DNA from: Shigella phage POCJ13
Sequence record: KJ603229
Strand: one strand, 5' to 3'
Length of the DNA: 62,699 bases
Below, one piece after another: positions 48,001-60,000 of the stretch. Each line of letters opens with the position of its first letter. The first letter of the stretch is position 1. Made by a program: the position numbers.

Positions 48001-51000
48001 TCCTGTTGGTGCTGTTGCTGGTGCAGTAATTGGCGGCATTGCTGGTTCTTTGTTTTAAGGAGTGGTGAATGAGCGGATTTGCACAGGGGTTACTTGCCGG
48101 ATTCAGCACCGTTGACCAGGCAATGACCCGTCGTAAGGAGCTTGGTCTGCGTGAAGCACAGCTTGCCCGGCAACAGAAAAATAACGAGCGCGATTTTGAA
48201 TTTGCGCAGTCTCAGTTTGAGCACCGGAAAGAGAATGATCAGCGTACATATGATCTTAATGTCAGGAATGCTGACCGTGAATATGCGCTGAAAGAGAGGG
48301 AACACAAAGCAGCGCAGAATTATCGAAATGCGTCACTGGGTATGGAGCAGCAGCGACTCCAGTTGCAGAAATACAACCAGCGACGGCTTGAGTATAACGA
48401 TATGCTGGCGCGCGATCAGCCTGTGATGGCTGCGCTTGGAAAGGCTGTGGATGCTGGTGATCGGGATGCGGCAATGCGTCTTTACGGGCAGTTGTCAGAG
48501 GGTAATCCGCTGAGGCTGATGGCGAATGATGGCTATGCAGCGAAAGCGGGGCAGGCCGTGAACAACCTGCAGAAAATCTTTGATGATAAGCCGGACAGGG
48601 CGATTGCTTCGCTGAATACCCCGGAAAATCTCGATGTGCTTTCCGGCGTGTTTGCCCCGGAACTACAACAGCGTATTGGCATGCCTGATTCAACCGGGGA
48701 AAAGACAATAAAAGAGGCCAGGATTGGCAGTATCGTACCGGCGCAGCAGGAAGGGTACGTACTTATTGGTCTTGATCTCACATACAGCGATGGCTCCACC
48801 GCGCATAAACCTGTAACAGAATACGGCAGTGCACATCCTGATGATCAAACCGTGCTGGCGATACCCGTTGATAAGGCTGTCGCTCTTGTCAGGGATCGCA
48901 GTAAATTCGCGGAAATTTCGAAAAATTACGGTTATTTCATGCCGAAGCAGCAGGGACTTTCTCTGAAAGAGCTTCAGAAGGGGGCCAGCAACGTAGCGGC
49001 GGAGGCGATCAAGAATGGCGGTAATGCTCAGGCTGCGGTGGATGAATATTATGCTGCGACTGGTTCACAACCGCATCAACAGAAAATTCAGCAACAAAAA
49101 CTTCAGCAACAGGTTATCAACTGGGCGGGAGATGATCCTGATAAGCTGTCATTTGCCAGAAATGTAGCGGCCCGTCAGCCTGAAATGCTGGAACCTCAGA
49201 ATCAGAAATTGCTGGAGAACGGGTATGCGAATTTTCTCCGTATTCAAAAGGCCAGGGGGGAACAGGCCAGAGATGAAAGTGCTTCATCTGCATCTCAGTT
49301 TATCCGTGGACTGAAACAGAATTACGCCCAGTAATTCACGATATTCCATTAATACCATTTCCTGATGCCCGGCCATTGTGCCGGGTTTTTTTATGGAGTC
49401 TGTATGGCCTATTCAGAGGAACAGCGTCCTGAGGCGCAACTCGGTAACCAGAATCGTAACAGCCTGAACATTCAGCAACCCGGCGAAACTGACAGCTATG
49501 AAGCATTTTTCTCTGATCCGAATCGCTGGAAGGATAACAGTACGTCGTTCAGCCTGGGCGATGTATTGCCAACAATGGGTAAAGGTTTCGCCCAGTCCGT
49601 CCGGGGAACAGGGGAAATGGCCCGTGGACTCGGTGATGCGATGATTCAGAGCCCGGTAAAAACAGGGGTGCGTATTTTAAATGAGTTCAGCCGTATGGGG
49701 CTGCCGGGTGTCGCAACTGTGCAGGATATTTTTGCCGGTGGCAGCAGGGGGGCTGATGAGGTCATCGATACCCTGCCTGATGGCAAAAACGCGGTTACTG
49801 ATACTGTCGGTAAAGGTCTGAAGGCAACCGGTAAGGCTGTCAGTGATGGTGCTAAAGCCTCGGATGAATGGCTGACCGATAATATGTCGCCGGGTGCTGT
49901 GCGTGCGCTGAATACGCCAATGAGTGAAGGCTATGATGATCCCGCAGTCTGGCTGACGAAGGGGATGAATTTTGTCGGTGCCGTTGCGGCAGATGTGTTT
50001 GCTGGCGGTGTGGCTAAAAAGGTGGGTGATGTCACACTGCGAAAAATGCTGACCGCCGGGCTGGAGAAAAAATACATCGCGGCAGGGATGCAGCCGGAAA
50101 GAGCCACGGCACTGGCAGCAGACGCTGTCGATAAAAAAATGCCGGATTTATTCCGGGCGGGCCTGATCACCCATTCCACAGTAAGTGCACAGGGGCAGAG
50201 TGCAATGGCGGCAGCAGATGCTGTTCTTAATGCGGATTACTCTGAGCTGGCGCAGTCACCGAAATTTCAGCAGACGTTTTTGTCCATTGACGCCGACCCG
50301 CAGCACGCACAGCTTACTGATCGCCAGAAAATGGACCTGGCAAAAGAGCGTGTGGCTGATGAGGTGCGTGCGCAACTGGCAACCGATCCTCAGTTGCTGG
50401 CTGTGAATGCCATGGCGGCAAAACTGGGCGATGCTCAGTTGCTTAATCTGGCGATGCGGGGCACGGCGAATACCGTTAAAAGCGGCATGATCAGAAACGC
50501 CACTGAACAGGGGGCGATTAATGCGGCGCAGGGCGGCTATTCACGCTATCAGGAAAACATGGCACTGCGTGATACCGCCGGAATGGATGTGTCGCCGTGG
50601 GAGGGCGTGGCTGACGCAACGATCGAAGGTGCAGCCCTTGGTGCTGCGATGGGGGCACCATTCGGTGCGGTTGCCGGATATCGTGGCAGACGTCAGGCGG
50701 CAGATGAAGCCGCCATGCGTGAGGCTGAAGTCGTACAGCAGGACGACGCAGCCCCGCAACCAGAATCTGTTGATCCGGTGGCGCAGCATCGTGAATCCAT
50801 GCAGGGGATGAATCGCGAGCAGCTTCTGGAGCAGTATGCTGATGCGGATATGGCGACAGAGGGTGACGCATCCGCAACTCATCGCCGGGAAGCCGCCAGC
50901 CAGCTGTTGAATGAACTGGACGAACAGGCGAAGCGACAGGCTGTGATGAATGAGCTGAAGGCGAAGCCGCGTTCTGAACTGCTTGAGGAATACCGCAGAC

Positions 51001-57000: not shown

Positions 57001-60000
57001 CTTCACGTGCTGCCGGTAATGTTGTTGGTGGTGTGCTTGGGGCATTCAGTCCTGTGGGCAGTGAAACGTCGGAAACACTGTCCGGGGCATTGCTGAAAAA
57101 TGCAGCGCCGACCATTCTGCGTCCGTTTGCGAACCTTGCCATGAATGAAAACTTCATGGGGGCGCAGATTTACCAGGAGAACATGCCGTTTGGTACACCA
57201 AAACCTGACAGCCAGCTGGGAAGACGTTCAACGCCAGAAGCGTACAAGGCGTTTGCATCCTGGCTGAATGCGTTCTCAGGTGGCAGCCAGTACCGTCCCG
57301 GCGCGGTGGATATCACACCGGAATCGCTGAAATTCTGGATTGACTATATCTCCGGAGGGACAGGGCGCTTCATTTCCAAAACCACGGATGCGGCGGTGAA
57401 ATCGCTGAATGGTATTGATATACCGGAACAGCAGGTGCCCTTCCTGGGGAAAATTTCGGGGGAGGTGATGCCGTATGCAGACCAGCAGAAGATGTACGAC
57501 CGGATGACAGAGATTGCGCAGTATCACGCAGAGCTGAAGAGTCTGACCGGTGCAGAAAGAACGGCGTTCATTGACGAGAACAACGGAAAATTGTCGATGA
57601 ACGGGCTTATGCAGGATACCCGGAAGAGACTGAAGGATTTGCGTAAACAGCGTGATGCCATTTATGCCGACAGTTCTCTCAGTCTGGCGCAGCAGGCGGC
57701 GATAGTGAAATCGGTAGAGCGGGATATGAAGGTTGCCGTGGATCGCTTTAACCGCGAGTACAACAAAAAAGTGGGAGTGGATTAACAGAAATGGCCCCGT
57801 ACGGAAGTGCGGGGCTGATTAAGGAATAAACACACATTAACCTGTAATAACCGGAGCTATTAACATATAGTCAGAAAGAGTATTTCATGTGAGACAGAGA
57901 GCCGATTTATGTTTAATGAAGAAAAAGTTGCGCAAATGGCAGCGTATTTGCTGAAAAAGCATGGCGGATCTATGCGTTTCATTAAGCTGATGTATCTCTC
58001 TGACCGCAAAGCAATGGAGTCTTTAACCGGGAAGGGGAGAGGTTTGAATGCTCCCCCACAATTCCCCGGCATCAAATCTCCATGCAGGTGAACTATTTTA
58101 CCCCCAGCGGCAAATCGCAAAAACAATCAGTGCGATCGAAATGGCAGCCACTACAATTGCAAATGCTTCAGGCTAGGTCATTGGCGTACCTCCTTCGGCG
58201 GTTCTGGTAGCGGCATCCAGTGGGTTACTTCTTTGAGATGCAGGTCTTCGCCATCACCGTCATCCCAAGTGGGATTGCCATCATTAAACCAGTCGCCATA
58301 TACGCCGACCTGAGTGTTGGGGATGCTTGGTGGGTAGTTGTTTTTAAAGTCAGCTGCTAACACATAGTATTGTCGCTCTCCCATTTCTGGCATTCGATCA
58401 CTACAGCTTATCCAACCATCCGGAGTTACCGGAACTGGCGGAACGGCTGTTTGCTCTCGAACGTCATTAGTCGCTATCGGTTCTGCTGCCAACTGACTGG
58501 CATATTTGTTAATGGTAACGATAAGCTCTTGCTCAGCCTCATCCAGACAATCACCGATACCTCGCCTGTCACCGTCAAAATCATCGAAATCGGCACGAAT
58601 CTTGGCAACCTTCTGGATTGCGGACAACACCTCACTAGGAATTACCGGATAGTTGGTTGACGTTTCCGCGATTTCCCGAAAATTATTGGTTGACGAATTC
58701 TTGTTTTCCCGAAAGTTTCCGGACTGAAGCATGGCGGCGCGGCAGGCATTCCAGCCTCTTACCTCTGCAATAGCGGCAACCGCATCAACCGCGTACATGC
58801 TAAGAGGATTAGGCATTGGTTTTTCTTCCGGTACTACTGGTGCTGGAGGGGCGGCGTAAATGCCCTCTATCACTAAATGTTTGCGCTCAAAATCATCTGG
58901 CTCTCGATGATATACGTAACTCCAATCACCAAGGTTATCATTGCGCCTGCAACGGAAACCTATCGGCTCGGCTTCCAGCGCTGCCAGAGCAATTCGTGCC
59001 AGTTCTTCCGCTTCTTCTGCTGGCAGTACAACGTTGCTACCAGGTCCGTATGTTTCGCGCCACTGCTTGATTGTCAGTAGTCGCTCTTTGGTAATAGTGA
59101 TCATGCCGCGTTTCCTTCTTTCTTATTAACAATTACACCGTCATATATTTCATTAAGGTGCCCTCTCAACTCCATGCGCCTTAATGCAGATAACATGTAA
59201 TCGCATTCAACCTGCTTATTCCCAATAAAAGGTTTATCTTCAGGGTTACCCCAACAGCAATTCCCCTTGGGCCATCCATGTACTTTCCGTACTCTTCCGT
59301 TAACAACGTGAAGTAATCCCCAGCCAGGTGGTAAATCCTCAATTGAAATAATTCCCGGCGCACTAATAAAGAATCGCCAGTCGCCCATTCCAAGAGACGG
59401 ATTTTTACGAAAACGCTTTTTTCTATCTGCCAACAAGTCAGCACGAGAACATTTCGCCTCTATCAGGCATGATGCTGAATTTCTGAATCCCATAGCATCT
59501 GGCTGTTCTCCGGTACTGGTTACAGCTATAAAGCGGTCATGAAAACAAACCTTGAACCCGTTGCGCTTAAGGAACTTGTACGCAATCTGACAGAGTTCGC
59601 GGTGTGTTAACGCCATATCACTCTCCTTTGATGCGAATGCCAGCAAGCCAGTTTCTTATGCCGATATATTCAGCGTTCCGGAAACCGCTTTTTACATATA
59701 TAAATGGCAAGCGAAGATTGTGACCATTGACTGCCAGGTAGTCTTTACAACCCTGTTCGGTGAAACAGCAGGTAACGAATTCATCAATATCTTTCACAGC
59801 AACGCGCCGCCATTTTTCTGGTGGCTCTCGAAAGTTTTCATGAAGTAGCTCGAGACGACGACTATGGCGTTTATTGGCTTCATTGCCATCTTCGTCAACC
59901 CAGACAATCCGGTCATGGTCATAATCAGCATCAACAACGATTTCGCGCTTTTGATACACACAAAACATGGGATCTGACGTTATTCGATTGTCCTGTGTTC

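Follow-up and report, generated by a model that had tools for sequence, protein, structure and literature searches.

Two predicted zincin metallopeptidase domains and a shared C-terminal chassis in the cysteine-free giant protein of Shigella phage POCJ13

The genome stretch of Shigella phage POCJ13 analysed here (sequence record KJ603229; 62,699 nucleotides, referred to below as the window) encodes a giant protein of 2,793 residues, which contains two predicted zincin-type metallopeptidase domains. The first (zincin 1) carries the motif HEWFH and belongs to a mobile cargo unit, while the second (zincin 2) carries HEIIH and is part of a conserved C-terminal unit that ends in a long segment, termed the chassis, containing the domain LPD38. 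The protein is probably packaged in the virion and ejected at infection as a polyvalent delivery protein, with its zincins processing the protein itself or cleaving host targets. The gene, its essentiality, the presence of its product in virions, the concept of polyvalent proteins with metallopeptidase (MPTase) hubs and the CLCA_X family are already published. Since injected polyvalent proteins with MPTases have thus been described, the present analysis is a refinement and not a discovery. It adds the predicted catalytic residues of the two zincins, one of them without a Pfam model, a combination of zincin 2 and LPD38 chassis common to four or five podophage lineages with differing cargo, and a cysteine-free signature. 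It also corrects the literature on two points, the suggestion of an AAA+ ATPase and the label of MuF-C as a metallopeptidase. Short-tailed Shiga toxin (Stx) phages spread Shiga toxin genes, and the giant gene is essential and makes up about 13% of the genome; the proposed domain map gives precise residues and domains for studying DNA delivery and injected proteins.

The single giant open reading frame (ORF) of the preliminary description is borne out: the plus-strand frame runs without a stop codon from 49365 to 57785, and from ATG 49404 it encodes 2,793 aa followed by the stop codon. The first ATG in frame, at 49365, lies inside a terminator-like hairpin. ATG 49404 is the sensible start, because GGAG stands 5 nt upstream of it and the 13 codons preceding it consist of the hairpin and its T-run. 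The length obtained in this way is the one published for ORF80 of phage Sp5. The hairpin, at 49367-49386, could set a lower stoichiometry for the giant protein. In the older annotation of phage phi24B, translation begins at the upstream ATG, adding 13 residues that include the only two cysteines of that protein, and the 'signal peptide' note on the phi24B giant derives from this start. Both HExxH motifs are found exactly at the positions previously given, HEWFH at aa 1284 (nt 53253) and HEIIH at aa 1551 (nt 54054); the count expected from the composition of the protein is 0.04.

The conservation of both sites was assessed with an exhaustive HMMER search over 1.84 billion cluster representatives, using aa 1190-1700 as the query. 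This region matches 5,869 clusters, 2,261 of them at E values up to 1e-30, and most of the matching proteins are 2,000-5,700 aa long. Conservation was counted in the best 148 of the 5,869 clusters, all less than 50% identical to one another. In zincin 1, residues H1263, E1265, H1284, E1285, W1286, H1288, D1291, E1375, R1379 and E1382 are conserved in at least 97% of the 148 homologues, and the general-base glutamate is retained in 147 of them. A word-indexed search gives HEW[FWLM]H in all 78 matches that are less than 60% identical. The NCBIfam model CLCA_X (NF041907) aligns along its full length with aa 1182-1437 (E 8e-44; positions 3-245 of the 250 in the profile), scoring 150 bits against a curated NCBI cut-off of 260. 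Judged from this alignment, zincin 1 appears clearly homologous to CLCA_X, though it lies under the NCBI naming threshold. A confident AlphaFold model shows a zincin fold, the nearest folds being MtfA, lethal factor and the Pro-Pro endopeptidases (PPEPs). The site fits zincin topology, with HExxH on the helix that follows a mixed β-sheet and a further ligand or acidic residue on the following helix. The domain also matches the widespread phage-type MPTase signature of Iyer et al. 2017 (PMC5512222), defined by a histidine where strand 2 ends, HExxH and an aspartate at +3. A stand-alone 574-aa LPD5-zincin-LPD1 protein is encoded in Gemmobacter caeni (contig 10001-11725), surrounded by genes for H-NS, PcfJ, an SNF2-like helicase of more than 1,700 aa and Tn7-like functions (TniQ/TniB/Mu-type transposase). 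This solo protein on a mobile element indicates that the zincin 1 unit also circulates outside phages.

For zincin 2, the alignment reaches the motif in about 90 of the 148 representatives. H1551 is kept in 89 of 92 sequences, E1552 in all 92 and E1607 in 81 of 82, and the second histidine stands at +4 in 42 of 92 and at +5 in 69 of 91, giving HExxH or HExxxH; Iyer et al. noted the HExxxH variant alongside HExxH (PMC5512222). The model shows a minimal zincin fold with the glutamate on the next-but-one helix, as in the gluzincin type. No Pfam model covers the domain. Pfam searches of the HExxH segments at E values up to 10 give no MPTase-PolyVal or peptidase match except Peptidase_M76 at E 0.15, and sequence searches of the PDB, with single sequences and with profiles, find no significant relative. 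Annotation pipelines miss both peptidases, because Pfam splits zincin 1 into LPD5 and LPD1 and has no model for zincin 2. Both motifs are conserved in distant homologues, the point on which the preliminary description had let its proposal of zincin-type sites stand or fall. Together with the CLCA_X match for site 1 and the zincin folds, this supports the prediction that both are zincin-type sites. Literature searches yielded no biochemical work on zinc binding or peptide-bond hydrolysis by either domain. The same description had called the protein mostly helical, a term that does not fit the pair of central segments covered by the structure models: these are α/β, with 39-45% helix and 16-19% strand within those segments. 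A stand-alone 'zincin 2 + MuF-C' protein of Pectobacterium was considered as a natural module boundary and set aside as a decayed prophage remnant.

The chassis, comprising the last 914 residues, is shared well beyond the Stx phages. In tblastn searches it matches Vibrio phages over its full length at 41% identity, the giants of Ralstonia GP4-like phages and of the Burkholderia Lessievirus CSP3 at 27% identity each, and the giants of the Bacillus phages Page and Palmer in part. The Pfam domain LPD38 is present in the Vibrio, Ralstonia, Burkholderia and Bacillus giants, and no solved structure or family besides LPD38 matches the chassis. An alignment of four lineages contains the enzyme-like invariant polar motifs HAxERN...INxxMxDGGSGM, YVPLKG, YNPxF..N..RD..T, ENAxRLSxY, QGTxN and GxDDD. 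Directly upstream of the chassis lies a homologue of zincin 2 in Vibrio D75 (HEILAHH; phmmer 2e-27), in CSP3 (HEAFH; hhalign 96.6%, E 5.8e-10) and in the Ralstonia phage RPZH3 (HEMFH; hhalign 96.5%, E 7e-10); in the Stx phages, zincin 2 and chassis are separated by an inserted MuF-C. The cargo consists of an SLT domain, an Eco57I-type methylase, a helicase and LPD3 in CSP3, of LPD3 in RPZH3 and of a methyltransferase-like region in Vibrio; the LPD5-zincin 1-LPD1 unit is present in none of the giants of Vibrio D75, CSP3 and RPZH3. This pattern of presence and absence places zincin 2 in the conserved C-terminal unit and zincin 1 among the mobile cargo. In each lineage the giant gene is the last of the virion module and follows a gene for a protein of 420-550 aa. 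In the Bcep22-like phage JC1, the giant gp69, by mass spectrometry, and the upstream gp68 are both virion-associated, and the portal, capsid and head-closure proteins of JC1 are described in the same paper as homologous to those of 933W. A wider proposal, to which only a low probability is given, is that zincin 2, the LPD38 chassis, the N-terminal region and the partner of ~420 aa form a general, conserved and cysteine-free protein-translocation and portal-docking 'effector delivery chassis', with swappable cargo and zincin 2 as the protease releasing that cargo in the cell. Such a system would cover the 933W-, Vibrio-, Bcep22- and GP4-like podophages and partly the Bacillus Page-like phages. 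If this were true, the invariant chassis motifs HAxERN...DGGSGM, YVPLKG, ENAxRLS and QGTxN would point to a so far uncharacterised activity that Stx phages need in order to deliver their DNA.

The remaining architecture of the giant protein is anchored by Pfam matches far above threshold: LPD5 at aa 1051-1200 (E 5.6e-45), LPD1 at aa 1361-1440 (E 9.5e-24), MuF_C at aa 1750-1837 (E 3.1e-17) and LPD38 at aa 2476-2681 (E 3.7e-48). The N-terminal region, aa 1-430, is a candidate membrane-interaction or ejection region. It has a weak match to Gly-zipper_OmpA (E 0.037) and is common to the Vibrio giants and, weakly, to the Ralstonia giant. No strong transmembrane helix is predicted in the giant protein, only weak Gly/Ala-zipper patches with a maximum Kyte-Doolittle (KD) value of 1.22, and Pfam detects no SLT or lysozyme domain in it. 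Between the linker and LPD5, DFGxxxxGAxK (aa 906-916), PxPxY (aa 945-949), G956 and R969 are invariant in about 140 of the 148 homologues (window 52119-52310), and no Pfam, NCBIfam or PHROG-annotated model covers these motifs. A further invariant basic stretch, R1175-x3-N1179-x2-R1182-x-G1184 (52926-52955), separates LPD5 from the zincin core. The prediction for it is of high confidence and shows no regular secondary structure, and the stretch is a candidate pro-segment or intramolecular substrate in the active-site cleft. MuF-C combines its Pfam match with a predicted BECR/RelE-like fold and is not a peptidase.

The window is a 933W-like Stx phage. Its giant gene has counterparts in 184 phage records, with 92-97% nucleotide identity, and every one of these is a Stx-converting, short-tailed phage of the 933W type (Sepvirinae). 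PHROG 616 matches the protein over its full length. The phi24B ORF is 95.8% identical in amino acids across all 2,793 residues, with identical synteny. In Sp5, deletion of ORF80 (2,793 aa) abolishes plaques and lysogens; the mutant packages DNA in normal-looking heads but loses the binding of tail-fibre antibody, and ORF79 (421 aa), just upstream, is essential too (PMC5155283). The preliminary description had made its proposal depend on the protein being part of the virion, and mass spectrometry of purified phi24B virions finds the orthologue gp47, which is termed abundant there and is absent from cryo-electron microscopy maps; the authors of that preprint propose an ejection protein. The phi24B preparation included about 36,000 emptied particles. 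Among Stx phages the orthologues are mosaic. The zincins and the chassis are 96-100% identical, and divergence has its hot spots at the N-terminus, in the linker, in the LPD5 region and where MuF-C ends. The LPD5 region (52254-52853) falls to 50-66% identity in phage 86, compared with 96-100% elsewhere, the N-terminal 250 aa to 62-78% in PhiR12_3; the MuF-C allele (54804-54953) of some E. coli prophages is divergent. This mosaicism suggests recombinational swapping of, or diversifying selection on, cargo surfaces.

The composition of the protein is equally distinctive. It has no cysteine in 2,793 aa (P about 7e-19, given 1.49% cysteine in the other ORFs of the window), and 116 of 142 giant homologues, among them the giants of CSP3 (4,647 aa), RPZH3, Vibrio and Palmer, have none either. 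Cysteine is likewise absent from four of the five upstream cassette genes, those of 218, 150, 83 and 421 aa (46691-49334). The giant protein shares this trait with proven ejection proteins, namely N4 gp50 (3,500 aa), gp51 and gp52 and T7 gp15 and gp16; in the same phages, cysteine does occur in portals, tails and fibres. The absence of cysteine may be read as a signature of proteins that thread a narrow channel on leaving the capsid and then traverse the oxidising periplasm, and such a composition may mark ejected proteins in general. Neither Iyer et al. 2017 nor the papers found by a targeted literature search give the cysteine-free trait as an ejection signature.

These observations can be arranged in a two-layer model, which is judged somewhat more likely than not. 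The giant protein would be made late and packaged in the capsid as a loosely folded 'beads-on-a-string' chain, and at infection it would be driven out by way of the tail, before the DNA or together with it. A delivery layer, formed by the N-terminal helical/Gly-zipper region, zincin 2 and the roughly 900-aa LPD38 chassis, would serve portal incorporation, tail completion and/or the DNA-ejection path, and this proposed role would explain why the gene is essential. A cargo layer, formed by LPD5-zincin 1-LPD1 and the RNase-like MuF-C/PBECR domain, would be injected and swappable. The zincins would cut their own polyprotein before packaging or after entry and so free the modules, and host proteins may be cut also or instead. 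Ejection, autoprocessing and the division of labour between the layers are what we infer from the comparisons above. The Sp5 knockout points to a core assembly or delivery role and not to an accessory anti-defence function, because the mutant is fully non-infective and its DNA-filled heads bind no tail-fibre antibody. Autoprocessing by zincins has precedents in the self-cleavage of CLCA (PMC3650047) and in P1 DdrB (PMC5512222). What weighs against autoprocessing is that the virion RNA polymerase (vRNAP) of N4 and ArdC travel uncleaved despite their MPTase domains (PMC5512222), and for this reason autoprocessing taken alone is given less confidence than the model as a whole and is somewhat improbable.

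The interpretation offered in the preliminary description, an ejected protein whose protease could counter host defences, amounts in essence to the hypothesis that Iyer et al. 2017 put forward for polyvalent proteins (PMC5512222). In its specific form, zincin 1 together with LPD5 would be injected as a toxin-like protease that cleaves host defence or regulatory proteins, as lethal factor, ImmA/IrrE and ArdC do, and would not act in autoprocessing. This is compatible with the delivery-unit part of the model, is one of the options listed by Iyer et al. (PMC5512222) and agrees with lethal factor and the PPEPs being among the nearest folds, with a mobile module that occurs in thousands of giants and alone beside PcfJ and an SNF2-like helicase, and with the divergence of the LPD5 region among Stx phages, as expected for a host-interaction surface. 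However, no substrate is known, PADLOC gives no match for the giant protein and no anti-defence family matches it, the catalytic core is highly conserved instead of diversifying, and anti-defence alone leaves essentiality on E. coli K-12 unexplained; the idea is considered doubtful. A slightly lower probability is assigned to an envelope-breaching ejectosome, in which the protein would form a trans-periplasmic conduit and its metallopeptidase(s) would cut peptidoglycan peptides, lipoproteins or outer-membrane proteins to reach the inner membrane. Podophage ejection proteins of T7, P22 and N4 do form such conduits, the gene is essential while heads fill with DNA, an SLT domain at the N-terminus of the Bcep22-like relatives shows that envelope-active cargo is used on the chassis, and no other domain that could be recognised as wall-degrading is present in the Stx-phage protein. 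Characterised peptidoglycan peptidases, however, mostly belong to the LAS/M23/M15 or NlpC/P60 types rather than to the HExxH zincins; proteins are the substrates of all the folds nearest to these domains (MtfA, lethal factor, PPEPs and minimal zincins), and zincin 1 also occurs alone in conjugative-element contexts. The phi24B preprint, which put this mechanism forward for gp47, assigns the peptidase to MuF-C, and since MuF-C has a BECR/RNase-like fold and is not a peptidase, the stated basis is wrong.

The alternatives that deny peptidase activity fare worse. If the HExxH domains were inert, serving as a structural zinc site or scaffold in a purely structural protein, or were non-peptidase enzymes, it would be difficult to understand why the glutamate is kept in 147/148 homologues at site 1 and 92/92 at site 2, with both histidines and the downstream glutamate. 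If the site performed no chemistry, such purifying selection over thousands of clusters would be hard to account for, and this possibility is judged very unlikely. An AAA+ ATPase powering a step of tail assembly was suggested for Sp5 ORF80 from a COG1483 match and the tail-less phenotype (PMC5155283). Neither a Walker A nor a Walker B motif is found across the 2,793 aa and no ATPase family matches in Pfam, NCBIfam or PHROGs, so that the ATPase is effectively refuted at the sequence level and its probability is close to nil.

The giant ORF is the last gene after the tail genes, lom and a cassette of small genes. The earlier account of this neighbourhood is right about lom, the four small genes and the Gly-zipper, which is found in the 83-aa product, but the 421-aa gene that lies between these and the giant ORF had not been singled out. 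None of the four small genes figures in the set reported as essential in Sp5 (PMC5155283), and a run of small genes is also syntenic upstream of the Vibrio giant. The 421-aa protein is homologous to the protein upstream of the Vibrio giant (E 6e-14), and its similarity to the Ralstonia equivalent is not significant. It is likely a partner virion or ejection protein, given the essentiality of Sp5 ORF79, the Vibrio homologue, the presence of its JC1 equivalent, gp68, in virions and the lack of cysteine. The phi24B preprint reports 'a homolog of a bacteriocin' in virions, discarded there as a contaminant; if this is the 83-aa Gly-zipper protein, it may be a genuine small virion or ejection component. 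Within the giant gene, older Stx-phage records place several antisense ORFs, under names such as 'similar to metallophosphoesterase' and 'ABC-type transporter'. These run opposite to coding sequence that is highly conserved and are probably spurious. Three islands of low GC content, 15001-16000 (0.30), 40001-41000 (0.40) and 44001-45000 (0.40), stand out from about 0.50 elsewhere in the window and are likely acquired morons; the last covers a 'membrane associated protein' moron adjoining lom.

Table 1. Positions of the giant ORF, its domains and neighbouring features in the window
Feature	Position (nt)	Strand	Residues (aa)	Description
lom	45032-45766			upstream of the small-gene run
Four small genes	46196..48058	+	133, 218, 150 and 83 aa long	83-aa product with Gly-zipper
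83-aa Gly-zipper gene	47807-48058			weak matches: YMGG-like Gly-zipper (Pfam, E 9e-6), Bacteriocin_IIc (9e-4)
421-aa gene	48069..49334	+	421 aa long	equivalent of Sp5 ORF79; no cysteine; directly upstream of the giant ORF
Terminator-like hairpin and T-run (T7)	49367..49392 (hairpin 49367-49386)	+		between the 421-aa gene and the ribosome-binding site/ATG of the giant ORF
Giant ORF	49404..57785	+	2,793 + stop	orthologue of Sp5 ORF80/ECs1242 and of the phi24B giant protein (gp47)
N-terminal region	49404..50693	+	1-430	ends in a Gly/Ala-zipper hydrophobic patch (aa 403-427)
Linker	50694..52100	+	431-899	proposed to be disordered; acidic, Pro/Glu/Gln-rich, poorly conserved, near-zero homologue coverage
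Conserved N-extension and LPD5	52101..53003	+	LPD5 1051-1200	Pfam; invariant columns in about 140 homologues; AlphaFold2 model
Zincin 1	52947..53723	+	1182-1440	predicted CLCA_X-type metallopeptidase domain; its C-terminal helices are Pfam LPD1
HEWFHSLD	53253..53276	+	1284-1291	predicted active-site motif of zincin 1
Zincin 2	53811..54413	+	1470-1670	predicted minimal gluzincin-like domain; HEIIHH and E1607
HEIIHH	54054..54071	+	1551-1556	motif of zincin 2
MuF-C / PBECR	54486..54953	+	about 1695-1850 (Pfam 1750-1837)	predicted RNase-toxin-like fold
C-terminal chassis	55041..57782	+	1880-2793	includes LPD38 (aa 2476-2681, nt 56829-57446)
Antisense ORFs in the giant gene	about 52400-56000 (phi24B record 32192-35769)	minus		older annotation; probably spurious

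Among known systems, the polyvalent proteins of Iyer et al. 2017 (PMC5512222) correspond most directly to the giant of the window, which unites several LPD and effector domains in one large polypeptide encoded among late/virion genes. A length of more than 2,000 aa, the position at the end of the virion module, the LPD5/LPD1/MuF-C/LPD38 domains and the MPTase signature are all alike, site 2 belongs to the HExxH/HExxxH series described there, and no essential difference is seen. CLCA_X is a prokaryotic, mostly phage- or plasmid-borne sister group of the self-cleaving CLCA metalloprotease domain (Lenart 2013, PMC3650047). Its members have HExxH followed by a conserved aspartate, reside on phages, prophages and plasmids and are often part of very long proteins, as is zincin 1. 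The domain of the window differs in being embedded in a 2,793-aa protein, always after LPD5, and in its spacing, which is HExxHxxD compared with HExxHxxxD in the consensus as printed (PMC3650047).

The DarB-like giants of the Bcep22-like (Lessievirus) and GP4-like phages share the zincin 2 and LPD38 chassis (27-30% identity over about 800-900 aa), the gene position and the absence of cysteine, but they carry SLT, Eco57I-type methylase, helicase and LPD3 cargo and are without LPD5-zincin 1-LPD1 and MuF-C. Because of this different cargo, the label 'DarB-like antirestriction' is not transferable to the Stx-phage protein. The PHROG 'DarB-like' match is limited to the C-terminal LPD38 region, DNA methylase and helicase families give no match in the giant protein, and the assignment as a DarB-like antirestriction protein was rejected for lack of a methylase or SNF2/helicase module match. 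The internal virion proteins T7 gp14-gp15-gp16 and P22 gp7/gp16/gp20 resemble the giant in being required for infectivity and not for DNA packaging and in being encoded in late virion-module clusters. No sequence or domain similarity to the giant was found for these T7 and P22 proteins, and the enzyme domain of T7 gp16 is a transglycosylase, not a zincin. Losing the T7 or P22 ejection proteins is not known to abolish tail-fibre attachment, unlike the deletion of ORF80 in Sp5, in which it is lost.

The vRNAP of N4, gp50, offers a parallel in layout. It has a beads-on-a-string form, is invisible in virions and is ejected after the smaller ejection proteins, and its C-terminal domain consists of C1, an HExxH subdomain, and C2, a large α-helical part with no known relatives (2026 study, PMC13434306). 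Homology between the C-terminal parts was tried and rejected: hhalign gives probabilities of 0.6% for the chassis and a non-significant 9% around HExxH, and N4 is therefore kept as an analogue only. Both proteins are giant, cysteine-free and encoded by the last virion-operon gene after genes for smaller ejection proteins, likely ones in the window, and neither N4 gp50 nor the phi24B orthologue is visible in maps. Both combine an N-terminal region of membrane type, a candidate one in the window protein, central cargo with known or predicted enzymatic domains and an HExxH site with a large C-terminal domain. They differ in cargo, which is an RNA polymerase in N4 and LPD5-zincin/MuF-C in the window protein, and in that ejection is proven for N4 and proposed here. 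By this analogy of architecture, gene order and composition, N4 vRNAP is seen as the closest functional analogue of the POCJ13 giant.

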